In this document: piece by piece, positions 856-13,343 of the stretch
How the letters are laid out: each line of letters starts with the position of its first letter
Numbering within the stretch: position 1 is the first letter of the stretch
IMG/VR virus record: IMGVR_UViG_3300034093_001339
Location: 1 to 34,358 of that record
Source: a virus
Lineage: Duplodnaviria > Caudoviricetes
Length of the DNA stretch: 34,358 nt
Reading direction: 5' to 3' (one strand)
Made by a program: the position numbers and the translations under genes
The notes under the pieces: model-generated
Told to the model about the DNA's origin: nothing
Seen by the model: only the letters and a program-made list of their open reading frames with translations
Database searches by the model: none

Positions 856-930
856 GCGGGTGTAGCTCAGTGGTAGAGCGCTGTCCTTCCAAGTCAGATG
901 TCGAGGGTTCGAATCCCTTCGCCCGCTCCA
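856..930 (+). tRNA. trnG: tRNA-Gly(TCC)
   Basis: GCGGGTG acceptor, loop CTTCCAA, TCCA. Confidence 0.95.
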
Positions 931-931
931 A

Positions 932-1039
932 CATTACTTTGATGATACAATGGTTAATCCATCATAGAAAAGCAGTAGTGATACTGTTGTCCGACGATAA
1001 CATCATAGGGGTAAGGAACATTGTATCTTCTAAGTAATG
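932..1039 (+). ncRNA. wrapper-stem RNA cassette, family 1 copy 1
   Basis: CATTACTTTGATGATACA...TGTATCTTCTAAGTAATG terminal stem shared with 6172-6290 and 7501-7602; internal GTGA tetraloop hairpin 971-988. Confidence 0.7.
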
Positions 1040-1046
1040 ATTTTTA

Positions 1047-1121
1047 GCTGGTGTGGCCCAATGGTAAGGCAACTCACTTGTAATGAGTAGATTGGGAGTT
1101 CGATTCTCTCCACCAGCACCA
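1047..1121 (+). tRNA. trnT: tRNA-Thr(TGT)
   Basis: ACTCA-CTTGTAA-TGAGT arm, ACCA. Confidence 0.95.
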
Positions 1122-1129
1122 AAAACAAT

Positions 1130-1158
1130 GCGGATGTGGTGTAATGGTAGCCACGCTG
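1130..1158 (+). pseudogene. orphan 5' fragment of tRNA-Leu (acceptor 5' strand + D arm)
   Basis: GCGGATGTGGTGTAATGGTAGCCACG nearly identical to the start of tRNA-Leu at 1615. Confidence 0.85.
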
Positions 1159-1197
1159 AAAAGATGCATTAATGTGTTTACTGTGATAAATAAACGT

Positions 1198-1629
1198 ATG
1201 CAACAAATAACTGAATATATCACATTGCCGCAGACTGTGCGACAGCAACACCTCAAACTTGCCGAACCTTGCATTGAACGAGGTGGACAAAGCATGTATC
1301 TAAAGGGGTTGCTTGCACATATTTTAGATACAACAATCCCGTCAGGTAGCAAAATTCATGTGTGCCACGCATGTCATAATGCACTATGCAGTAACCCAAA
1401 TCATTTGTATTGGGGGACGCCAGGAGAAAATGCTCTTGACCGAGACTCTCAGCACAAGCTAACTGTATGGGATAAAATGGTTCAAAAATACGGGCTCGAT
1501 GAAGCTCGAAAGATGAATAGCAAGACCGGTAATAAGAATGGTGCCGGTAATAAAGGAAAACCAAAATCCGAAGAGCACAGAAAAAAAATTGCTCTTGCGT
1601 TGACAAAGAATAATGCGGATGTGGCGTAA
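1198..1629 (+). CDS. HNH homing endonuclease with C-terminal NUMOD3-like motif
   Basis: CHACHNALCSNPNHLYWGTPGEN HNH/zinc-loop motif; GKPKSEEHRKKI; probable ATG 1198 just after ATAAATA; stop lies inside tRNA-Leu. Confidence 0.85.
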   Translation: MQQITEYITLPQTVRQQHLKLAEPCIERGGQSMYLKGLLAHILDTTIPSGSKIHVCHACHNALCSNPNHLYWGTPGENALDRDSQHKLTVWDKMVQKYGLDEARKMNSKTGNKNGAGNKGKPKSEEHRKKIALALTKNNADVA

Positions 1630-1698
1630 TTGGTAGCCGCGGCAGACTTAGAATCTGTTTCCTCTGGAGTGGGGGTTCGAGTCCCTTCATCCGCACCA
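1615..1698 (+). tRNA. trnL: tRNA-Leu(TAG)
   Basis: GCAGA-CTTAGAA-TCTGT arm, long variable arm, ACCA. Confidence 0.95.
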
Positions 1699-1705
1699 AA
1701 GTATT

Positions 1706-1782
1706 CGGAGTGTAGCTCAGTTTGGTAGAGCGCCTGGTTTGGGACCAGGATGTCGTGGGTTCAAATCCTGTCACTCCGACCA
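1706..1782 (+). tRNA. trnP: tRNA-Pro(TGG)
   Basis: CCTGG-TTTGGGA-CCAGG arm, ACCA. Confidence 0.95.
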
Positions 1783-1785
1783 ACT

Positions 1786-2110
1786 ATTATAGTGTTGAGC
1801 AACAACAACACGGTTGCAGCAATGCAGCCCGCTATAATCGGTAAGCTAGGACCGTTTGTTGTAACTGTCAAATGAGAAGACTGAGTAACTAGTTTTAGAC
1901 CTAGTGAAAAAGGCCAACCGACTGTGACGGGTATCCCGGGTTGAGAGAGGTTGGGGTGAATGGTGTTGTGTAACCAAAACAATATGCACTCATGGGGTAT
2001 CGTGTCAAACGTCTAAAAGCCTGCTGCAACGAAATGGCAGCTCTGGATGACGGTAACCAGAATGAAATTTTATAAAGCCGTGTCCCATGATAAGAACATA
2101 GTGGACCGGC
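1786..2110 (+). ncRNA. candidate structured ncRNA(s)
   Basis: no credible ORF; dense helices incl. ATTATAGTG/CGCTATAAT, GGTTGCA-GCAA-TGCAGCC, CATGGGGTAT/GTGTCCCATG. Confidence 0.5.
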
Positions 2111-2115
2111 ACAAT

Positions 2116-2190
2116 GCGGGTGTAGCTCAGGGGTAGAGCGTCTGCTTGCCAAGCAGAATGTCGGCAGTTCGAATCTGCTCACCCGCTCCA
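2116..2190 (+). tRNA. trnG: tRNA-Gly(GCC)
   Basis: TCTGC-TTGCCAA-GCAGA arm, TCCA. Confidence 0.95.
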
Positions 2191-2194
2191 GTTT

Positions 2195-2270
2195 GTAGGT
2201 GTAGCTCAGTTGGTAGAGCGTCGGTCTCCAAAACCGAATGTCCAAGGTTCGAGTCCTTGCTCCTGCGCCA
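2195..2270 (+). tRNA. trnW: tRNA-Trp(CCA)
   Basis: TCGGT-CTCCAAA-ACCGA arm, GCCA. Confidence 0.93.
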
Positions 2271-2464
2271 AAATTGGGAGTTAGCCGCCCAAGACCAGTG
2301 TCCACGATATTCTCATTCCAACTTGACACTCTAATAAACTTTTGTATTGAGCGTAACCCACTATCGTTAAGACTGGGAGGTTTTGAGGGATGTTTTACCG
2401 TAAAAAACATAACGGGTATTGATGCATACCTAATGAAGGGTTGGCCCCCAGCATCGACTATTTT

Positions 2465-2541
2465 GCGTCCTTGGTGCCAGATGGATGGCCACAGGGATTC
2501 TAACCCCTAGGAGGCAGGCTCGATACCTGTAGGACGCACCA
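2465..2541 (+). tRNA. atypical tRNA (Arg TCT-like, or CTA-reading), 8-nt anticodon loop
   Basis: perfect GCGTCCT/AGGACGC acceptor and ACCA; AGGG-ATTCTAAC-CCCT arm; T loop CTCGATA. Confidence 0.65.
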
Positions 2542-2559
2542 TTTACGAAGGAACATGCT

Positions 2560-2736
2560 ATGTTTATGACCAAAAAAGAAATCGAAACTGCTGTTCGAGT
2601 TTGGCCAGCTAACGCAGAGGCTCCGCTGACTAGAGATCAGCAAATAGAACTTATGACTACAGCACGGGTGAGACACCTTGCTAAAATTGAAAAAACCATC
2701 AGATTAATCAAAGGAAAAAATGATGTCGTAGATTGA
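2560..2736 (+). CDS. hypothetical protein (58 aa, MFMTKKEIE...)
   Basis: GAAGGA SD; open frame read manually (below ORF-track cutoff). Confidence 0.6.
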   Translation: MFMTKKEIETAVRVWPANAEAPLTRDQQIELMTTARVRHLAKIEKTIRLIKGKNDVVD

Positions 2737-2800
2737 ATATGCTTGTGGGGAATTAGTTTTCCACTTTAACAAAAAACACTTAGAAGATGATAATATTCCG

Positions 2801-3316
2801 ATGTGGGTTGTTAAGATGCGAGGCGAAACATTTTATGTTAGTCACGTTGAATGTAGCATTCCGTGGAGCACAAAAGAAACGCCAGACAACAACCACACCA
2901 AAGGTAGCGTCAAAGTTAAAAATTGTTTGGTCGTGATTGATGATAGCAACACTGCAATCATTACAAAGCTGACTGAAGAAGATAAGAAACGGCTCAGTAA
3001 CAAAAAACAGTTTATCAGAGTTATCACCAGCTCTGGTGCGAAACTAATCAATGCTATTGAAGAGATTGGTATTGAGACCGGTACTGTCAAAAGAGCAGGC
3101 GGCGGGTGTGGTACGTTGTGGTTTATTACAGAACTGTATAACTACGATGAGTTTTTTCAACTGAAGTTTGTGATGATTGGCACTGATTTTAGAGTGTTAA
3201 TGGAAAACGAGGACTACTACAAGCTGTATGGTTCAGCTAAGGAAGAAGACACTTGGTTGGACGAAGATACGGATGATGAAGATATTGACGATTACGAATC
3301 GTTATACGAAGAATAA
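2801..3316 (+). CDS. hypothetical phage protein with acidic tail; probable true start 2720/2723 blocked by in-frame TAG
   Basis: ORF track; frame stays open upstream to TAG 2729-2731, preceded by SD AAGGA and ATGATG. Confidence 0.75.
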   Translation: MWVVKMRGETFYVSHVECSIPWSTKETPDNNHTKGSVKVKNCLVVIDDSNTAIITKLTEEDKKRLSNKKQFIRVITSSGAKLINAIEEIGIETGTVKRAGGGCGTLWFITELYNYDEFFQLKFVMIGTDFRVLMENEDYYKLYGSAKEEDTWLDEDTDDEDIDDYESLYEE

Positions 3317-3317
3317 T

Positions 3318-3393
3318 GCTGCTATAGCTCAGTTGGTAGAGCACCTGATTAGTAATCAGGGTGTCGGGAGTTCGAATCTCTCTAGCAGCACCA
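3318..3393 (+). tRNA. trnT: tRNA-Thr(AGT)
   Basis: CCTGA-TTAGTAA-TCAGG arm, ACCA. Confidence 0.93.
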
Positions 3394-3394
3394 G

Positions 3395-3402
3395 TATAAA
3401 TA
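3395..3402 (+). promoter_or_regulatory. T4-like late promoter TATAAATA
   Basis: exact T4 late consensus; (A)TAAATA recurs before genes at 1186, 7754, 9339, 16977, 18806, 21113, 25479, 33224. Confidence 0.65.
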
Positions 3403-3460
3403 CATATGGTACTTACTGTTTACCCTAGGGAGAAGGCGAGTAAGTTAAAAGAATGCGTGT

Positions 3461-4267
3461 ATGACTGCCAATGTATTTTATAAAGGAAACAGCAACATGG
3501 TAACTAAATTAGTTGTAGGATTAACTGACTCGTTGCAGAGTGAATTTGTATCAAAACCAGATGAATCTAAGGATCATTATGATGATCAGACTGTATCGGT
3601 TGATGTATATGCTATTCCTGCATCATGTAATGTGACAGCAACCGAAACATTAGAATGGATACTCGATACTGAACTGCCAGGTGTTTCTAGTTTAAATACT
3701 ATAGTAGAACAAATGAAAACTAGGCTATTACTCAGAGACGTTATAATTATTAAACGAAATCCAATAGATGGGTATACTAGTTTTAGTTTAATCTTTGGAC
3801 TATTAAATTATGTCCCAAACCCAGCAGTAACATATACTGAATTTATAGATCAAGATTACAACTCATTGATAGAATCTCCTAGATTTGGTGATCTTGTATT
3901 AGAAGAAGTATACGGCTATGAAATTAACGGCGTTCCACATACCAGTTCATTGTCATATGCAGTTGATCACGACACAACAGAATATTTAGCAAATGCTTAT
4001 CCTCCCCGTAGCACGGTGCCAATGTTTAATGTTAGATTTACTATCGGTGAACAGAACAACAAACCACAAACTGAACTGGCTCCCGAGTTTATTGATTGGT
4101 TCAATAATAATCTAAGTTCTCTAAGTGCAAAAGGTTGGGATATTAATAACTCAAAGTCAAGAGTTGGGTTTTATGTTGCAGGCAGGTTAGTCGGAGATCC
4201 ATGGGAACAGTATTTGAAATTAGCAAACAACCCTTACATATGCACTATTAATATTGTAGAAGAATGA
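3461..4267 (+). CDS. hypothetical protein, paralog of 4272-5042 (start may be 3497)
   Basis: long ORF; shared blocks VGLTD, FGD, GDPW, IC..VEE. Confidence 0.85.
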   Translation: MTANVFYKGNSNMVTKLVVGLTDSLQSEFVSKPDESKDHYDDQTVSVDVYAIPASCNVTATETLEWILDTELPGVSSLNTIVEQMKTRLLLRDVIIIKRNPIDGYTSFSLIFGLLNYVPNPAVTYTEFIDQDYNSLIESPRFGDLVLEEVYGYEINGVPHTSSLSYAVDHDTTEYLANAYPPRSTVPMFNVRFTIGEQNNKPQTELAPEFIDWFNNNLSSLSAKGWDINNSKSRVGFYVAGRLVGDPWEQYLKLANNPYICTINIVEE

Positions 4268-4271
4268 TACG

Positions 4272-5042
4272 ATGACTAAAATAAATTTTGTTATTGGACT
4301 AACAGATGTTGAAGATTATGACGGATTTGTTTATGATACATTTCCGAATGAAGATAACATTGATAGAGTATCCTATAATATACAACGAGCAGATACTAGT
4401 ATAGAAAAAGATTCGATTGTGTGGGAATTAGATCTAACATTAGATGCTACTAAAAACATAATAAAGGTATGGGAACATATCATAAGAAGACCTCACCTTG
4501 CAATGATCCATCGGGTAGCTACAAAAAATGTTCTAGCACCGACCTATACTAACTATAATTTAAATATACATTTTACAAATTTGATTCCTATTTTATCTGA
4601 CTATAAATTAACTCTGACTAATAGTGATTATGAAAAATTCACTCAAGCAAGTAATTTTGGCGACATGTATTTGGATCAATTTGTATTGTATCAAGCCAGT
4701 AATATAAATTGGCAAACCACGTTGGAATATGCATGTGTGCATGACACGATTGATAAACTTAATGTACATAATCCATTAACGGTATTACCAGGATTTGTGT
4801 TTGACTTTGAATTAAAACCCAATCAGTTTAATACTACAGCTAGGCGTGATCTGCGTTTTGTTGAATGGATTAATGAAAATAAAGATGCACTTGCTGAAAA
4901 AGGATATACATTGGATGATCCATATTGCACTGTTGGTAGATTGTGCATAGGTAAACTGATAGGTGATCCGTGGGATGAGTATCAAAAGTTACAAAAATAC
5001 AGTAGGATATGTCGTACCAGTATGGTAACAGTAGAAGAATAA
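4272..5042 (+). CDS. hypothetical protein, paralog of 3461-4267
   Basis: long ORF; collinear similarity with upstream gene. Confidence 0.85.
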   Translation: MTKINFVIGLTDVEDYDGFVYDTFPNEDNIDRVSYNIQRADTSIEKDSIVWELDLTLDATKNIIKVWEHIIRRPHLAMIHRVATKNVLAPTYTNYNLNIHFTNLIPILSDYKLTLTNSDYEKFTQASNFGDMYLDQFVLYQASNINWQTTLEYACVHDTIDKLNVHNPLTVLPGFVFDFELKPNQFNTTARRDLRFVEWINENKDALAEKGYTLDDPYCTVGRLCIGKLIGDPWDEYQKLQKYSRICRTSMVTVEE

Positions 5043-5045
5043 TTT

Positions 5046-5133
5046 GGAAAGCTGGGCGAGTGGTTTATGCCTGCAGTCTTGAAAACTGCCGAACCGCAAG
5101 GTTCCGTGAGTTCGAATCTCACGCTTTCCGCCA
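5046..5133 (+). tRNA. trnS: tRNA-Ser(TGA)
   Basis: GCAGT-CTTGAAA-ACTGC arm, long variable arm, GCCA. Confidence 0.95.
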
Positions 5134-5169
5134 AAAATAAAAAAATGTGTCTAAATTGTCAAAAAGATG

Positions 5170-5198
5170 TTGACACAAGATGATAAATAAAGTATAAC
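5170..5198 (+). promoter_or_regulatory. sigma70 promoter with embedded ATAAATA late motif
   Basis: TTGACA-17 nt-TATAAC. Confidence 0.8.
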
Positions 5199-5241
5199 AG
5201 TATTGTAAGTTAAGAGACTTCCAAGCTAAAGAGATAAACAA

Positions 5242-5334
5242 ATGAACCTCACTATGCAACAACATATGATTCAGATTAACGTTGAAAAACGCCATGAGTA
5301 TCGCTTTGGTATCATGGAGGGACTGCGAAACTAA
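5242..5334 (+). CDS. putative attenuator leader peptide (30 aa, MNLTMQQHMIQINVEKRHEYRFGIMEGLRN)
   Basis: AGAG SD; ORF overlaps alternative hairpins and ends ~25 nt before an intrinsic terminator. Confidence 0.65.
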   Translation: MNLTMQQHMIQINVEKRHEYRFGIMEGLRN

Positions 5335-5357
5335 TAGTGTAAACATACACAAGTTTC

Positions 5358-5392
5358 AAAACCCTCCAGTAGCAATACTAGGAGGGTTTTTT
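5358..5392 (+). terminator. intrinsic terminator (attenuator 3:4 hairpin)
   Basis: AAAACCCTCC-AGTA-GCAA-TACT-A-GGAGGG-TTTTTT. Confidence 0.85.
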
Positions 5393-5510
5393 ATTGAACT
5401 AAAGTGGAAATGCGGAACGTGACTGCGAGTAACCACTATAAACAAACTCAAATGGGCGGCCTCGGTGATGAAAGCGCAAGCTGAAAAATCCGAGAGATAA
5501 ACAAAACTAC

Positions 5511-5622
5511 AATTCTGTTTACACATGCACAACAGCCATACCTAGCTAGGTGGTAGTGGAACTATAAGTATCAAGATACAAAAACACGTTCGATTCGTGG
5601 TTGTGCAGATGTAAACAGAATT
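5511..5622 (+). ncRNA. wrapper-stem RNA cassette, family 2 copy 1 (tRNA-like cargo)
   Basis: AATTCTGTTTACA-CA-TGCACAAC / GTTGTGCA-GA-TGTAAACAGAATT stem; T arm CACG-TTCGATT-CGTG. Confidence 0.7.
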
Positions 5623-5698
5623 GGTGCTATAGCTCAGTTGGCAGAGCAGTAGACTCATATTCTACGTGTCGTAGGTTCGATTCCTACTAGCACCACCA
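5623..5698 (+). tRNA. tRNA-Met or Ile2 (CAT)
   Basis: GTAGA-CTCATAT-TCTAC arm; G1:C72 so not initiator. Confidence 0.9.
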
Positions 5699-5704
5699 AA
5701 ACAT

Positions 5705-5782
5705 GGCCCCATAGTTTACGATTGGTTAGAATACTGGACTTTCAATCCGGAGAAGCGGGATCAACGCCCGCTGGGGCTACCA
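5705..5782 (+). tRNA. trnE: tRNA-Glu(TTC)
   Basis: CTGGA-CTTTCAA-TCCGG arm; atypical T loop ATCAACG. Confidence 0.88.
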
Positions 5783-5801
5783 AAAAAAAGTAAAATAGTT
5801 C

Positions 5802-5830
5802 TTGACAAGTAAGAGCTCTTACACTATATT
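5802..5830 (+). promoter_or_regulatory. sigma70 promoter with palindromic operator in spacer
   Basis: TTGACA-AGTAAGAGCTCTTACAC-TATATT. Confidence 0.8.
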
Positions 5831-5862
5831 ATACATGTAGGAAGAAAAAAGAGGATACTGCA

Positions 5863-6000
5863 ATGTCAGAAGTTACCAAATGTGTTGCTATTGTTGCTAA
5901 TCTTGCGGTTGCTGTAATGTTGTTAAGTATCTATGTTAACTACGATCCCATGCGTTCAGCAATTAACTCTGCTGTGTTGCAGGCGATTATAAGCGAATAA
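5863..6000 (+). CDS. small hydrophobic (single TM) protein, 45 aa
   Basis: GAGGA SD, promoter upstream, CVAIVANLAVAVMLLSIYV. Confidence 0.65.
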   Translation: MSEVTKCVAIVANLAVAVMLLSIYVNYDPMRSAINSAVLQAIISE

Positions 6001-6007
6001 AGAATTT

Positions 6008-6091
6008 GGGCATCACCCCGCAAGGTGCGGGAGCGGACTGTAAATCCGTCGGGGAAACCCACGCTAGGTTCGATTCCTAGGATGCCCACCA
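6008..6091 (+). tRNA. trnY: tRNA-Tyr(GTA) with extended D stem
   Basis: GCGGA-CTGTAAA-TCCGT arm, long variable arm, D arm CCCGCA-AGG-TGCGGG. Confidence 0.9.
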
Positions 6092-6097
6092 AATAAT

Positions 6098-6172
6098 GCC
6101 TCGGTAGCTCATTGGTAGAGCGTTCGCCTGAAGAGCGGAGCGTAGGGAGTTCGATTCTCCCCCTTGGCACCA
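6098..6172 (+). tRNA. trnF: tRNA-Phe(GAA)
   Basis: loop CTGAAGA; two acceptor mismatches. Confidence 0.85.
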
Positions 6173-6290
6173 TTACTTTGATGATACACTAGAGAGCAGA
6201 TAGCCTTTTGTAACTAAGACAACTCCGTAGGTTACAGACTTGAGCGCAGCATGGTTAGGGAGTTGCCGGCTAGTGTATCTTCTAAGTAAT
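6172..6290 (+). ncRNA. wrapper-stem RNA cassette, family 1 copy 2 (pseudoknotted cargo)
   Basis: ATTACTTTGATGATACACTAG / CTAGTGTATCTTCTAAGTAAT. Confidence 0.7.
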
Positions 6291-6300
6291 AGGAGTAAAG

Positions 6301-6690
6301 ATGTTAGAGTGTTTAATCATTGGGGATAGTATTGCACAAGGTATAGGGCAACACAGATCAGATTGTGTATCAGAAGCTAAAGTAGGTATTAACAGTCGTA
6401 ACTATGTCGAGACGTATACATTACCCGAATCAAAGTTAACAGTAATTAGTCTTGGTAGTAACGATTTAGGTATGAGCAACCAATATACTGTGCTATATAA
6501 CTTGCGTGGCGAAATTAAAGGCATTGTGCTATGGATATTGCCAGCTAACAATGACGAAGCGAGGAGCAATATACTAACTATTGCAAACATTCATAACGAT
6601 AAAGTTGCTGATATTAGACAACTGCCGTTAAGTAAAGATGGTGTTCATCCTACTACAAAAAGCTATAAAGCACTAGCAAAACAATTTTAA
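6301..6690 (+). CDS. SGNH/GDSL-family hydrolase
   Basis: IIGDSIA, SLGSND and DGVHP motifs. Confidence 0.85.
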   Translation: MLECLIIGDSIAQGIGQHRSDCVSEAKVGINSRNYVETYTLPESKLTVISLGSNDLGMSNQYTVLYNLRGEIKGIVLWILPANNDEARSNILTIANIHNDKVADIRQLPLSKDGVHPTTKSYKALAKQF

Positions 6691-6691
6691 T

Positions 6692-6714
6692 GCGCTGGTA
6701 GCTCAGAGGCGGAG
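6692..6714 (+). pseudogene. orphan 5' fragment of tRNA-Lys
   Basis: GCGCTGGTAGCTCAGAGGCGGAG vs GCGCCGGTAGCTCAGAGGCAGAG at 6870. Confidence 0.75.
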
Positions 6715-6751
6715 AAACCCCGTATGCGCTATCAAAATTAAGGAAACTGTA

Positions 6752-6964
6752 ATGGTTGAAAAGTTAAATTTGTCAAAAGAAGAAATAGCAAAGATAGAAG
6801 AGATTAGAAAAAATCCTCCACCAATGACAGACTATGTTAGGCAATATATTGAAGCCTATAGAAAAAAATGCGCCGGTAGCTCAGAGGCAGAGCAGGGAGC
6901 TCTTAACTCCAAGGTCGAGGTTTCAAAATCCTCTCGGCACACCAAAATAACTCTTGACAAGTAA
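6752..6964 (+). CDS. hypothetical protein reading through tRNA-Lys(CTT)
   Basis: AAGGA SD; ORF track. Confidence 0.5.
   Translation: MVEKLNLSKEEIAKIEEIRKNPPPMTDYVRQYIEAYRKKCAGSSEAEQGALNSKVEVSKSSRHTKITLDK
6870..6944 (+). tRNA. trnK: tRNA-Lys(CTT)
   Basis: loop CTCTTAA; T arm GAGGT-TTCAAAA-TCCTC; ACCA. Confidence 0.85.
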
Positions 6965-6982
6965 GACGTCTTACTATATAAA
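6954..6982 (+). promoter_or_regulatory. sigma70 promoter with perfect 16-bp palindrome in spacer
   Basis: TTGACA-AGTAAGACGTCTTACTA-TATAAA. Confidence 0.8.
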
Positions 6983-7008
6983 CATAGTGTAGCAAGAAGG
7001 AACACGAT

Positions 7009-7158
7009 ATGGCTTACTGTATTAAGGTAGACGGCGAAATAGTGCTGGTCGCAACTGATGAAAAAGATGCACTCGCAATGATTGCTTCTAGTAAACTGGA
7101 TCCGCAGTCCAAAGGCAAAAAAATTGTAATGGAAGTGTACGGAAATGGAAAAGAGTAA
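7009..7158 (+). CDS. hypothetical protein (49 aa)
   Basis: GAAGGA SD, read manually. Confidence 0.6.
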   Translation: MAYCIKVDGEIVLVATDEKDALAMIASSKLDPQSKGKKIVMEVYGNGKE

Positions 7159-7309
7159 AACAATGATCCACAGCGGTAACCTAAGCTACTTGAACAGTGT
7201 GCATCGTAAATACGGTGTATGGAAATACAACATGTTCATGCTGAAACAGTGGAGCAACGGTAAGATGACTGTTGAATTTAGGGAGAAGGAAAGTGAAACG
7301 AAAACCTAA
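7145..7309 (+). CDS. hypothetical protein (54 aa)
   Basis: overlapping open frame between neighbours, read manually. Confidence 0.5.
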   Translation: MEKSKTMIHSGNLSYLNSVHRKYGVWKYNMFMLKQWSNGKMTVEFREKESETKT

Positions 7310-7436
7310 AGTGCCGAAGGAGCGTAATCCATTTGTTCAACATTTGGTTATGAAACATTCCGGACCGCACGGTAAAACTAAAAAAGCCGAACGTAGAGCA
7401 GAGAAGATTGCTTTACGCAAACAAATGGACCGGTAG
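7293..7436 (+). CDS. small basic protein (47 aa, MKRKPKVPKERNPFVQHL...)
   Basis: GAAGGA SD, GTG start, stop TAG inside tRNA-Lys(TTT). Confidence 0.65.
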   Translation: MKRKPKVPKERNPFVQHLVMKHSGPHGKTKKAERRAEKIALRKQMDR

Positions 7437-7501
7437 CTCAGAGGCAGAGCAGGGGGCTTTTAATCCCAAGGTCGAGATTTCAAAATTCTCTCGGTTCACC
7501 A
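7427..7501 (+). tRNA. trnK: tRNA-Lys(TTT)
   Basis: loop CTTTTAA; T arm GAGAT-TTCAAAA-TTCTC; ACCA. Confidence 0.88.
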
Positions 7502-7602
7502 TTACTTTGATGATACACTGATACCGAAGGGCACGACGGTTTGGTTAGTACCCCTGATGCCGGGCGAATGGTTCGAATCCAACAGTGTATCTTCTAAGTA
7601 AT
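7501..7602 (+). ncRNA. wrapper-stem RNA cassette, family 1 copy 3 (tRNA-like cargo)
   Basis: ATTACTTTGATGATACACTG / CAGTGTATCTTCTAAGTAAT; TGG-TTCGAAT-CCA T arm. Confidence 0.7.
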
Positions 7603-7608
7603 GAATAT

Positions 7609-7683
7609 TGCCTCTTAGCTCAGTGGTAGAGCAAACGGCTGATAACCGTTAGGTCACTAGTTCAAATCTAGTAGGGGCAACCA
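7609..7683 (+). tRNA. trnI: tRNA-Ile(GAT)
   Basis: AACGG-CTGATAA-CCGTT arm, ACCA. Confidence 0.95.
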
Positions 7684-7689
7684 AAATAT

Positions 7690-7747
7690 ACTTCCGTAGC
7701 TCAACTGGACAGAGCACCACGCTACGAACGTGAAGGTTGGGGGTTCG
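7690..7747 (+). pseudogene. tRNA-Arg(ACG) truncated in the T loop
   Basis: D arm, CACG-CTACGAA-CGTG arm and GGGGGTTCG, then unrelated sequence. Confidence 0.85.
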
Positions 7748-7765
7748 CAAATGATAAATAAACAT

Positions 7766-8479
7766 ATGAACTATAAAAAACATTATGATTTATTAATCGA
7801 GCGAGCAAAGATAAGACAATTAACAGATTATGTTGAAAGACATCATATTGTTCCTAGATGTATGGGCGGAACAGACGATAAGTCTAATTTAGTAGAACTA
7901 ACGCCCGAGGAACACTATGTAGCACATCAGTTATTAGTTAAGATGTATCCAGAAAACGACAGTTTAGTTTATGCTGCTACTAAGATGACGGTGGCATCAA
8001 AGACAGTAAAAAGAAAAAACAAAAGATATGGCTGGCTTAAAAGACGCTATCAAAGTGTTTGTAAAAAAAGGATAGGAAATAAAAATCCTAGTTATGATCG
8101 TAGTTGGTATTATTGTCCAGAAACTTTAAATGAAGGAAAATTTCTATCAAGTAATATTCCAGCTGGTTGGATAAAAGGACGAAAATCAATAACTAAAGAA
8201 AACACTAAATGTTCTTCGTGCGAAACTGATACTAATAGTAAAAAATCTAAATGGTGTAATACATGTCGACGTATACATGGAAATTACAAAAAAGATGGTG
8301 CTAAAAAACAAGTTAAATCTAAAGATGCGTTTACTACAGAAGAAAAAACAAACGCATTAATAGACAATAACGGAAATATCCGCAAAGCGTTATTTTCGTT
8401 AGGATTAAATGATAGCGGATCACATTATAAAAAAATGAAAGAAATAAAGGCGTCTGTATACCCTCTGGCTACGAACTAG
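7766..8479 (+). CDS. HNH homing endonuclease (T4 MobE-like N-terminal HNH)
   Basis: ERHHIVPRCMGGTDDKSNLVELTPEEHYVAHQLL; C-terminal CxxC pairs; probable ATG 7766 after ATAAATA. Confidence 0.9.
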   Translation: MNYKKHYDLLIERAKIRQLTDYVERHHIVPRCMGGTDDKSNLVELTPEEHYVAHQLLVKMYPENDSLVYAATKMTVASKTVKRKNKRYGWLKRRYQSVCKKRIGNKNPSYDRSWYYCPETLNEGKFLSSNIPAGWIKGRKSITKENTKCSSCETDTNSKKSKWCNTCRRIHGNYKKDGAKKQVKSKDAFTTEEKTNALIDNNGNIRKALFSLGLNDSGSHYKKMKEIKASVYPLATN

Positions 8480-8529
8480 TTGAAAGGTTAACTGGACACA
8501 TGGGGGTTCGACTCCTCCCAGGCGCACCA
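8450..8529 (+). tRNA. non-canonical (strand-rewired) tRNA-Arg(ACG)-like RNA
   Basis: acceptor GCGTCTG/CAGGCGC+ACCA, T arm intact, anticodon hairpin precedes the D-loop sequence. Confidence 0.7.
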
Positions 8530-8591
8530 AATAGTTATAACGGACTTGGTTGTGTGCGAAACACGTAATACCAAGTTGCACAAACAGAAGC

Positions 8592-8720
8592 GATTCTGTT
8601 TTCACATGCACTATGGTTGGGGCCAAGCGGCTGGCCTGAATCCATAATACTCCTTGGGTGATGCCTTTCGGGAGCAAGCTAGGTTCAAATCCTAGACGTA
8701 GTGCAGTTGAAAACAGAGTT
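8592..8720 (+). ncRNA. wrapper-stem RNA cassette, family 2 copy 2 (tRNA-like cargo)
   Basis: GATTCTGTTTTCA-CA-TGCACTATG / CGTAGTGCA-GT-TGAAAACAGAGTT; T arm CTAGG-TTCAAAT-CCTAG. Confidence 0.7.
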
Positions 8721-8799: not shown

Positions 8800-9156
8800 G
8801 ACAACATTATATAGTGGTTCGAAACGTTATATGATGAGAATGCTTCCCACCCTGTGGAACCTCGGGGTGAGCAGATTGGCTTGCCACAGCGCAGGTGAAG
8901 GGGTAAAAGTCCCAATGGGGGTTCTGGGAATTAGTATTGATCCATCCTCTGATCCGCTAACTGATTCTAGATAAGGGGTTAGCCAAGATGGTGACGTCGA
9001 CCTTAGCTAAAGCTGGCGAAATATACAGGTCGTTAAACTGGCTACAACCTGAGTAGAAATAAACGTTGTGAAACTGCTCTCGAAATTCAAATAGGTGACG
9101 GCAATCACCTTAACTGGGAGACTACATACCGTTGTTTTGCCGAACTTTGGTGTAGT
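8800..9156 (+). ncRNA. candidate large structured ncRNA
   Basis: no credible ORF; back-to-back helices and a possible pseudoknot. Confidence 0.55.
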
Positions 9157-9813: not shown

Positions 9814-10974
9814 GTGACCCCGGCATTAATCACTCGTAACACCTTAGCAGGTATTACAACAAGTCTTGCTATGGTGCCAGAGGTTGTTGCATTTGCATTG
9901 TTAGCACAAGTTAACCCATTAGTTGGCTTATATGCGGCTGTGATACTAGGGTTAGTTACATCTATATTTGGTGGAAGGCCCGGTCTTATTAGCGGAGGTG
10001 CTGGCAGTTTAGCTGTTGTATCTGTGGCACTGGTAGTATCACACGGTGTCGAATACCTGTTTGCATGTATTATACTCATGGGTATTATACAGTTTGTATT
10101 TGGTGCATTAAAACTAGGTAAGTTAATAAAACTAGTCAGTCCAAGTGTAATGACAGGGTTTGTTAATGGATTGGCATTGGTAATTTTTCTAGCACAACTA
10201 GAGCAACTCAAATCAAACGGTTTATGGTTGCAAAGTTACGAACTTGCTAGTATGTTAGGCTTGATTGCTATTACAATATTTGGTGTATACATTGCTCCAA
10301 AAATTACACGCCACATACCTGCAAGTTTATTTGGGATTGTGTTAGTGACTGTGTTTGTGATGATATTTGGCATTGATGCTAAAACTGTAGGTGATATTGC
10401 TCATATTAGCGGTAACTTACCAACGTTACATATACCCAACATACCGTGGACGCTAGAGACGCTGTGGATCGTAGCACCTTACAGTTTTATATTAGCAGCA
10501 GTTGGGCTAATAGAAACTTTACTTACTGCTAACCTTGTGGACGACTTTGTGCAAAATCACAAAACACAACCAAATAAGGAAAGTATAGCGCAAGGCATAG
10601 GTAATATACTAACAGGCTTGTTTGGCGGTATGGGCGGATGTGCTATGATAGGACAGACGGTTATCAACTTAAAAGCAGGCGGCACCCACAGGCTTGCTGG
10701 TGTAGTAGAAGCACTTTCTATACTTGCATACATTGTATTTGCCAGTGCTGTTATTGAATCTATTCCTATTGCAGCATTAGTTGGTGTTATGTGTATGGTA
10801 TGCTATTATACATTTGATTGGACTAGTTTCAAAATTATAGATAAACCCAAACAAGATGTTGCGATTATTGTAATAGTAACTACTGTAACGGTATTGCTAA
10901 ATCTTGCATATGCTGTCATATTAGGTATTATACTAACATACATATTTCAAAAATTTGAAAAGGAGTCGTTATGA
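9814..10974 (+). CDS. sulP: SulP/SLC26 inorganic anion transporter lacking STAS domain
   Basis: LAMVPEVVAFA, FGGRPGLISG, GGMGGCAMIGQT motifs; many TM segments. Confidence 0.92.
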   Translation: MTPALITRNTLAGITTSLAMVPEVVAFALLAQVNPLVGLYAAVILGLVTSIFGGRPGLISGGAGSLAVVSVALVVSHGVEYLFACIILMGIIQFVFGALKLGKLIKLVSPSVMTGFVNGLALVIFLAQLEQLKSNGLWLQSYELASMLGLIAITIFGVYIAPKITRHIPASLFGIVLVTVFVMIFGIDAKTVGDIAHISGNLPTLHIPNIPWTLETLWIVAPYSFILAAVGLIETLLTANLVDDFVQNHKTQPNKESIAQGIGNILTGLFGGMGGCAMIGQTVINLKAGGTHRLAGVVEALSILAYIVFASAVIESIPIAALVGVMCMVCYYTFDWTSFKIIDKPKQDVAIIVIVTTVTVLLNLAYAVILGIILTYIFQKFEKESL

Positions 10975-11222
10975 GAACAAAAGCATTTAGACGACATCAA
11001 ATAGAACGTAAAAAAGCGTGGGCTACAAATGCTGCACATGAGTGGTATAGGAATTTTCCAGAAACTCAACCTACAGCACGACAAATTGGTAGACTGTTAC
11101 ATACACCTAAAGCATGTAGTTGCTGGATGTGTGGTAACCAACGTCGGCTTGACGGCGATACTATACAAGAAAGAAAAAGCAAAGATATCCTGCGAAGTAG
11201 TGTTAACGGTCAGCACACTTGA
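10971..11222 (+). CDS. hypothetical basic Cys-motif protein
   Basis: AGGAG SD; CSCWMCGNQRR; stop inside tRNA-His. Confidence 0.75.
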   Translation: MRTKAFRRHQIERKKAWATNAAHEWYRNFPETQPTARQIGRLLHTPKACSCWMCGNQRRLDGDTIQERKSKDILRSSVNGQHT

Positions 11223-11267
11223 TTGTGGATCAAGGAGAGCAAGGTTCGAATCCTTCCCGCAGGACCA
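11189..11267 (+). tRNA. trnH: tRNA-His(GTG), bulged acceptor, A73, no G-1
   Basis: CTTGA-TTGTGGA-TCAAG arm; CCTGCG(AA)G/CCGCAGG-ACCA. Confidence 0.8.
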
Positions 11268-12607: not shown

Positions 12608-12811
12608 ATGACACACAAGTTTCGAGTTACTGTAGTTGAAAGTGAGCGTGGTTGGGGTCGGCGTTATGAATCCGTAGACTTTGATACTTTTTCAGAAGCT
12701 AAGGTCTACCGGGATCACATTAACAGCCAAAACAAACCAGTTGGTCCTGGCGAATTTGCTCCAGATTGGTACATGATTGCGGAAAAAGAAATCCGTGTAA
12801 TTGAGAAATAA
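12608..12811 (+). CDS. hypothetical protein
   Basis: AGGAG SD; promoter TTGACA(12553)-17-TAGCAT. Confidence 0.75.
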   Translation: MTHKFRVTVVESERGWGRRYESVDFDTFSEAKVYRDHINSQNKPVGPGEFAPDWYMIAEKEIRVIEK

Positions 12812-12814
12812 ATT

Positions 12815-12836
12815 AAGGCCTAAGGGCCTTTTTTTT
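12815..12836 (+). terminator. intrinsic terminator
   Basis: AAGGCC-TAAG-GGCCTT-TTTTTT. Confidence 0.8.
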
Positions 12837-12893
12837 ATTGACTTTTGTACCGAGATGTATTACATTAACAATGTAAGCAGTAAGGAGAGACAT

Positions 12894-13343
12894 ATGCTTG
12901 TAGTTTTTGACATTGATGGAACGCTTGCCAACTGCGAGCATCGTTTGCATCACGTTCTTAGCAAGCCCAAGAACTGGCCTGCATTTGACGCTGGCATTCC
13001 GAATGATACAGTAATTCCGCAAGTTGCTGCAATGTTCTTTACTCTGCGTGATGCGGGTCATGACATTGTTTTTGCTACTGGTCGTAACGAGCGTAGTCGG
13101 GATGCTACAGTTGCGTGGCTTACAGCTAATGACTTTTGGCGTCCCTGGTCTCATCTCTACATGCGGAGCAAAGATGACTACCGTAGCGATGATATTGTAA
13201 AGCGTGAACTACTAGACGACATTGTTGCAGACTACGGTAAAAAGCCAGACATGGTGTTTGAAGATCGGCCACGGGTTGTTAAAATGTGGCGGGACAACGG
13301 CATCTTTGTTTTTGATGTGAAACAAAAAGACGAGGACTTCTAA
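12894..13343 (+). CDS. HAD phosphatase, like the 3'-phosphatase domain of T4 Pnkp (PseT)
   Basis: FDIDGTLA, ATGR, MR..DDYRSDDIVK, FEDR; AAGGAG SD before ATG 12894. Confidence 0.9.
   Translation: MLVVFDIDGTLANCEHRLHHVLSKPKNWPAFDAGIPNDTVIPQVAAMFFTLRDAGHDIVFATGRNERSRDATVAWLTANDFWRPWSHLYMRSKDDYRSDDIVKRELLDDIVADYGKKPDMVFEDRPRVVKMWRDNGIFVFDVKQKDEDF

Follow-up and report, generated by a model that had tools for sequence, protein, structure and literature searches.

The window analysed here, the full 34,358 nucleotides of the virus record IMGVR_UViG_3300034093_001339 (Caudoviricetes), contains 24 tRNA genes, all on the plus strand and within the first 11.5 kb, with T4-like replication genes lying after the cluster. 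Three elements are found between these tRNA genes (932-1039, 6172-6290 and 7501-7602), in each of which one and the same closing helix, referred to as the Family-1 stem, encloses a different insert; a stem together with its insert is called a cassette below. Labels such as L034 mark loci and labels such as G001 mark genomes. The elements and the adjoining tRNA genes are arranged as follows:

856..930, + strand: tRNA-Gly(UCC), upstream of element 1
933..952, + strand: 5' arm of the Family-1 stem of element 1; C932 adds a pair with G1039
953..1018, + strand: insert of element 1, 66 nt, no homologue found, without T-arm
1019..1038, + strand: 3' arm of element 1
1047..1121, + strand: tRNA-Thr(UGU), downstream of element 1
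6098..6172, + strand: tRNA-Phe(GAA), the A of whose CCA is the first base of element 2
6172..6192, + strand: 5' arm of element 2
6193..6269, + strand: insert of element 2, 77 nt, without T-arm; its one other occurrence is an identical copy in L034, amid the same genes
6270..6290, + strand: 3' arm of element 2
7427..7501, + strand: tRNA-Lys(UUU), the A of whose CCA starts element 3; cassettes of other phages are usually anchored here
7501..7520, + strand: 5' arm of element 3
7521..7582, + strand: insert of element 3, 62 nt, with a T-arm at 7569-7581; kept in L020 and L190 despite diverged arms
7583..7602, + strand: 3' arm of element 3
7609..7683, + strand: tRNA-Ile(GAU), downstream of element 3

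Each 17-nt arm has three exact copies on the plus strand (5' arm at 933, 6172 and 7501; 3' arm at 1022, 6274 and 7586), whereas shuffled sequences gave 0.34 and 0.17 matches at up to three mismatches, with none reaching six. This confirms the three elements with identical arms that a preceding sequence-only reading of the window had described. The pairing register is also as first noted, including the inner pairs ATG/CAT, CTAG/CTAG and CTG/CAG, and yields a closing helix of 19-21 pairs in the window with U.U at pairs 8 and 11. Compared with shuffles, the folds of the whole elements 1, 2 and 3 have z-scores of -3.5, -2.8 and -3.6, while those of the interiors by themselves show no gain in stability over shuffles (-0.04, +0.97 and +1.26). 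A start at or within one base of a tRNA's CCA holds for elements 2 and 3, which share its A, but not for element 1, which begins 3 nt after it (933, with tRNA-Gly ending at 930). The interiors, described at first as unrelated, have no sequence in common and belong to three separate insert families, although about a third of all insert families share a T-arm design.

The stem and its inserts in other phages

Arm matches were found in 13 viral loci when the search was exact, in 15 when the mismatch positions were left free, in one with a longer interior, and in 40 metagenome stretches. A looser scan returned 32 matches, 23 of which have pairing arms and lie without exception among tRNA genes; the nine unpaired matches are without a tRNA. 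The loci known at clustering hold 50 distinct elements in 31 insert families; L173 and L190, found afterwards, belong to known families, and four further inserts stand outside the clustering. Elements always lie in the sense orientation of the tRNAs, directly behind tRNA-Lys(UUU) in 32 of the 50 cases. The A of the CCA is shared by 35 of them, three start 2 nt later, and 12 follow another unit or other DNA; in many loci the element ends 0-1 nt from the next tRNA. Tandem arrays of two to four units occur in five loci, with mismatch counts, from the tRNA outwards, of 2,6,4; 1,7; 0,0; 5,7,8; and 2,0,2,5. The unit nearest the tRNA is thus the least diverged in three arrays, tied in one and not in another, which amounts to a modest polarity.

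The carriers range from complete genomes of 195-201 kb up to jumbo phages of 342 and 519 kb, and their core genes share only about 25-35% identity. The helicase of the window is 26% identical to the versions in G002 and G004, and 39 of 432 open reading frames (ORFs) are common to G001 and G002. As the carriers are so distantly related, the stem follows something other than phage descent. Among cultured phages (50,697 records), BLAST searches with elements 1-3, the Family-2 element at 5510-5623 (introduced below) and an unwrapped spacer RNA gave only chance matches, and a scan of bacterial and archaeal genomes gave a single match, which failed the pairing filter. The best cultured match to the window helicase is in the Pseudomonas jumbo phages PA5oct and Paride (52% identity), while DNA-level likeness of the window to cultured phages is confined to tRNAs; no tRNA was found in the 100-149 kb region of PA5oct. 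The cultured Aeromonas phage avDM12-TAAL has a 19-pair stem (L255 8945-9087) which starts from ACCA, encloses a 105-nt insert and lies between tRNA-Met and tRNA-Glu; its design is the same as that of the cassette, its sequence different.

The inserts can change their wrapper. A second type of wrapper, the Family-2 stem, is present twice in the window and accounts for 55 element calls in the examined loci, a few of them overlapping:

5510..5623, + strand: Family-2 stem with a T-arm insert; the type carries some Family-1 inserts in other phages
8592..8720, + strand: second Family-2 stem with a T-arm insert

Inserts of four Family-1 families turn up in Family-2 stems as well, and those of one family in a third stem (5 of 31), the exchanged inserts being 78-94% identical and often retaining the inner four to five pairs. 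Between element 3 and L020, the inserts have kept 95% identity and the arms 84%, and a scan with a motif of this insert gave 51 matches, of which three are real, each in a Family-1 stem. Within families, arms are kept better than inserts (0.93 vs 0.87 over 31 pairs). A strict T-arm is present in nine of the 31 Family-1 insert families, compared with 0.15 in dinucleotide shuffles, and in 30 of the 55 Family-2 calls; in the window it lies near the 3' end of element 3 and is absent from elements 1 and 2. Several inserts begin with a T-arm, as if permuted (the first unit of L020; a Family-2 insert of L011). One insert of the L132 array scores as Rfam tRNA at 37.6 bits, above threshold, with the inner pairs of the wrapper serving as acceptor stem. 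This tRNA-like match apart, the proposed Rfam check of the cargos turned up no known family for any wrapped insert: none for the three interiors in the window, none among the best 150 of 218 rows for 20 loci at gathering score, and none in the L132 array, 20 short loci and L157.

The variation of the arms follows RNA pairing. Across 39 distinct wrappers, pair 11 is U.U in 37 and C.U in two and is never Watson-Crick, while pair 8 is U.U in 31, U-A in five and U.C in three, so that of the conserved symmetric mismatches proposed earlier only the one at pair 11 holds throughout. Elsewhere in the arms, a change in one base is either compensated by its partner (at pairs 4, 5, 9 and 16-19) or produces G.U, and L190 has a further compensatory change at pair 9. 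Pairs 16-20, which the scans mostly left free, comprise 115 Watson-Crick, seven G.U, three other and no A.C combinations in 125 cells. Family-2 stems have 47 G.U against five A.C, though the filter favours G.U. Arm changes that keep pairing or give G.U point to RNA rather than DNA, in agreement with the sequence-only reading, which had argued for an RNA-level site instead of a DNA inverted repeat. Its further proposal of a modular handle around different cargos is borne out by identical arms on 31 insert families and by the same insert in two stem families. It is therefore very likely that the elements are modular RNA cassettes, in which one standard stem surrounds interchangeable, individually conserved inserts within tRNA clusters.

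Other RNA-like features accompany the cassettes. Ahead of a Family-2 stem there is often an incomplete duplicate of its 3' arm (8575-8600 in the window, and many loci); as this copy can pair with the 5' arm, a two-state stem is possible. An unwrapped, conserved, RNA-like spacer of about 118 nt lies between two Family-1 units in two phages (L063 2602-2720; L132 1615-1733) and has no match in cultured phages or Rfam. In the 519-kb phage G006, the stretch L157 722-822 is YrlA-like at 44.8 bits against a gathering score of 69 and overlaps a permuted tRNA-like stretch; no TROVE gene was found in the G006 genome.

Processing, function and rival explanations

On balance, the reading to which we incline is that the Family-1 stem is a processing stem for host RNase III which frees tRNAs and interchangeable small RNAs, the latter being likely decoys. 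The cassettes would be transcribed together with the flanking tRNAs, and host RNase III would cut the stem, thereby splitting the tRNA transcript and releasing the insert as a small stable RNA. The cut would be staggered and, in the best-fitting central register, leave the GA/UC between the U.U pairs as 2-nt overhangs. The trailer of the upstream tRNA would then be trimmed and the leader of the downstream tRNA removed by RNase P, both of which are established tRNA biology. A freed, tRNA-shaped insert could act as a decoy for host proteins that attack tRNA, and the cassettes would spread by ordinary recombination between the arms and the 3' end of tRNA-Lys among phages with a probably alphaproteobacterial host. 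Four further features of the window bear on this model:

5802..5830, + strand: sigma-70-like promoter, an 11/12 consensus match only, upstream of tRNA-Tyr/Phe and element 2
from 6954: near copy of the promoter match at 5802..5830, upstream of element 3
11189..11267, + strand: tRNA-His with A73 and without an encoded G-1, a host clue
12801..13343, + strand: polynucleotide kinase (PNK)-type phosphatase of a tRNA-repair module, 64-79% identical to the versions of distant cassette-bearing phages

The stem comprises 19-22 pairs with two internal mismatches, that is, about two helical turns enclosing the RNA, which is the helix size preferred by E. coli RNase III according to the accessible part of PMC1540722. 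The same enzyme takes part in the maturation of T4 tRNAs (PMC4810235, available in part). No phage RNase III was found in five of five genomes (two partly different sets of five were searched), so any such enzyme would be that of the host; with Ro60 and Nop also absent from five of five, the phage-coded partner protein once suggested for the stem is not supported. From the geometry and the place of the stem, cutting by RNase III is likely. Pieces of the elements occur in contigs from four RNA runs, where a homologue of element 3 is joined to tRNA-Ile and another insert to the 3' arm; only 0.05-0.11 of words are shared in these runs.

The host is probably alphaproteobacterial, judging from the tRNA-His genes of the cassette loci, all 25 distinct copies of which have A73 and no encoded G-1; the comparison is with the alphaproteobacterial tRNA-His signature as given in the available part of PMC3064791. 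Among comparison tRNA-His genes, those of two gammaproteobacterial phages have C73 and that of a Ruegeria phage has G1-U72 without C73. Neither BLAST searches with the tRNA-His genes nor the homologues of the sulfate permease indicated a host.

The tRNA-repair module adds to the picture. There are 31 genes common to G001, G002 and G007, among which the Rnl1-type RNA ligase is 61-72% identical, the kinase 59-67%, the PNK-type phosphatase 72-80% and the metallophosphoesterase 57-65%, far above the 24-35% of capsid, portal and helicases in the same phages. Sugar-nucleotide enzymes and unassigned genes are as conserved as this module. The repair enzymes of T4, ligase and kinase/phosphatase, mend cut tRNA, and the likeness of these enzymes against divergent core genes agrees with a common host and with pressure exerted by defences that cleave tRNA. 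Exchanged RNAs with a tRNA elbow beside a repair module could thus be decoys for tRNA-attacking host proteins, a suggestion to be taken with some reserve. A bolder version, which we regard as rather unlikely, has phages of one host group trading an RNA library by means of two standard stems in polarized, integron-like tRNA-Lys arrays, with mimics of tRNA elbows and of further RNA ligands that would jam tRNA-cleaving defences, possibly as ligase-closed circles.

Several results weigh against processing by RNase III and against decoys. A box score was built from the proximal- and distal-box determinants of E. coli in the accessible part of PMC1540722, with the E. coli 16S cut, placed by its 115- and 33-nt ends (PMC9959188, available in part), as positive control. 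This cut was picked correctly, but by these E. coli rules the wrapper scores 7 against a null mean of 6.4, a value reached by 41% of shuffles; the proposed RNase III-type substrate is therefore matched in helix size but not in the E. coli determinants. No top register has a distal box, and the best central one, with its overhang between the two U.U pairs, has a full proximal box on one side. Likeness to 18 alphaproteobacterial 16S/23S processing stems was not significant (best p 0.066). Since RNase III substrates show no striking consensus in the accessible part of PMC5371410, the near-identical arms exceed the known needs of the enzyme. The full G1-U72 signature is present in only nine of 25 tRNA-His genes, on which the host assignment depends entirely. 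The RNA-run contigs give no strand, level, ends or habitat. Elements 1 and 2 belong to the 22 of 31 insert families without a strict T-arm, and for their inserts neither the examined loci nor cultured phages offer a homologue from another phage, so that a function for these two is suggested only by the family pattern. The invariance of the arms is partly by design, as the scan patterns fixed many positions of the arm core, and when, as a control, the outer part of the 3' arm was left free in a scan, one C.A pair appeared (L173). Finally, Rnl1 is common in T4-like phages and does not single out the cassette system. The failed box test is itself weak evidence, because the RNase III of S. meliloti probably recognizes different motifs and requires longer helices, as far as the available part of PMC6121014 goes; no RNase III motif was obtained from the accessible part of PMC7866481.

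Mimicry of host rRNA stems was considered as well, but the likeness was not significant. The best of 32 rRNA stems was that of Comamonas 23S (p 0.01, uncorrected, from one genome), which conflicts with the tRNA-His clue. This stem (L167 3148-3161) agrees with the 5' arm of Family 1 at 13 of 14 bases, on one strand, in each of the three operons of that record, a likeness which is probably due to chance.

Among the rival explanations, the most substantial is an uncut handle, in which RNase P and 3'-end maturation would release a hairpin of about 100 nt whose stem binds one protein, as the stem of Y RNAs binds Ro60, with the insert as variable effector. The coincidence of element ends with CCA and their closeness to the next tRNA fit this, as do the better conservation of arms than inserts, a pair 11 that is never Watson-Crick and the lack of support from RNase III rules. 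However, TROVE/Ro60 is absent from five of five genomes, no wrapped element tested matches Rfam YrlA, and no RNA-binding family was seen among 27 shared proteins scanned (six of them without functional assignment). The same insert in two sequence-unrelated stems further disfavours a single sequence-specific binder, and the uncut handle is considered unlikely. More improbable still is that the arms are DNA sites of a site-specific cassette system, an attC-, REP- or MITE-like single-strand hairpin inserting at the 3' end of tRNA-Lys. One hotspot for 32 of 50 elements, tandem arrays with a modest polarity and identical arms in unrelated phages fit such a system. Yet target-site duplication, which the sequence-only reading had named as evidence for a MITE or REP, is seen as a flank duplication of at least 3 nt in only one of 50 elements, and the 110 scan matches include none in which a tRNA is followed by a fused or empty site. 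Tyrosine recombinase (PF00589), HUH transposase (PF01797) and reverse transcriptase (PF00078) were absent from five of five genomes, four of them at least 90% complete, with controls detected, which leaves room for a host or unrecognized recombinase. The preference for G.U over A.C, the movement of inserts between stem families and the fixed sense orientation also stand against a DNA site.

Two other explanations concern the fate of the insert. After the cut, the phage Rnl1-type ligase could join 5'-phosphate and 3'-OH, making the inserts small circular RNAs. The ligase is present in five of five genomes and well conserved, and the inserts which begin with a T-arm look permuted, but no back-joint at an element is found among the joints listed in the RNA-run contigs, which are weak for such a test, and tRNA repair as in T4 is enough to explain the ligase; circles are thus very unlikely. 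The reading of the inserts as guides, whether CRISPR-, TIGR- or box C/D-like with the UGAUGA of the 5' arm as C box, draws on constant arms and variable interiors in arrays. It is largely refuted and has next to no probability: UGAUGA pairs with UC and not with the GA of a D box, hence no kink-turn forms, no Nop domain is present in five of five genomes, and the inserts are conserved and structured. In 1.13 Mb of DNA from related phages, the window inserts match over 13-14 nt at most, rising to 16 nt where the match lies at a T-arm. Likenesses to hammerhead, kink-turn, loxP/dif and Ro60 motifs were dropped after weighing against these motifs as generally known.

Other features of the window and related loci

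At 5243-5400 of the window, a short reading frame precedes a strong hairpin of terminator type, and the end of the frame is complementary to the 5' side of this hairpin (fold z -4.6). The arrangement may be an attenuator that senses translation within the tRNA cluster, and pieces of it occur in the RNA-run contigs. HNH/homing endonuclease genes have inserted into tRNA genes at 1130-1698 and 7690-8529, where each lies between a tRNA 5' fragment (Leu and Arg, respectively) and a downstream copy, either full or partial. Long stretches between tRNAs at 1785-2110, 2272-2460 and 8800-9150 have no ORF or Rfam match and are probably further unannotated RNAs; the first resembles a stretch of L097, and RNA-run contigs cover it. 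A sulfate-permease (SulP) gene with many homologues at 75-80% lies within the tRNA region (9814-10974). In related loci, the cluster of the 342-kb carrier has a tRNA with the anticodon CUA, resembling an amber suppressor (L001 5329-5403), and the phage tRNA cluster of L040 (1-2490) runs into a bacterial rRNA operon (23S) at tRNA-Ile, which is likely an assembly chimera; this 23S rRNA was not used as a host clue.

Relation to known RNAs and cassette systems

No description of such cassettes was found in literature searches covering listings and the opening parts of abstracts. The cassette would work like an RNase III stem around RNAs of the T4 species 1/2 type while passing the tests of no class outright. 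Known RNase III stems, such as those of E. coli pre-16S and 23S and T7 R1.1 (PMC1540722, in its available part), likewise form a two-turn helix from both sides of the released RNA, but each of them encloses a fixed RNA, and their sequences are not nearly identical to one another; the cassette stem does not score above chance by E. coli box rules. Bacterial Y RNAs (YrlA, RF02553; bound by Ro60/Rsr) share the combination of a conserved helix with a tRNA-like domain, as described in the accessible part of PMC8058203. They differ in that the five phages have no Ro60 gene, the wrapped elements tested do not score as YrlA at gathering, and two-thirds of the cassette insert families have no strict T-arm. 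Integron attC sites and REP/MITE elements resemble the cassette in their conserved, imperfect inverted ends, their variable interior of similar size and their arrays with some polarity, whereas the interior of the cassette is a conserved cargo and the variation of its arms obeys RNA pairing.

The closest known RNAs are species 1 and 2 of T4 (rnaC and rnaD; NC_000866), which are small and stable, measure 119-139 nt and, without being tRNAs, lie inside the tRNA cluster of that phage. Their annotation goes no further than small stable RNA. The cassettes, too, lie in a phage tRNA cluster on the tRNA strand, and the fold of rnaC combines a T-arm on the 3' side with a closing stem, the same design as in the T-arm-bearing cassettes. 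If the inserts are decoys, the phages would carry an RNA-based counter-defence repertoire beside their tRNA-repair enzymes. The stem would also be a natural scaffold for the expression of small RNAs in alphaproteobacteria. T4 has two fixed RNA genes and no 19-bp wrapper was found in its cluster, while the cassette stem is found around no fewer than 31 insert families, arranged in arrays and exchanged between stem types. The T4 type of RNA appears here as a diverse and exchangeable library with clear boundaries, in which every stem delimits a single RNA, Rfam lacks dozens of the insert families, and gain and loss can be traced across phages.

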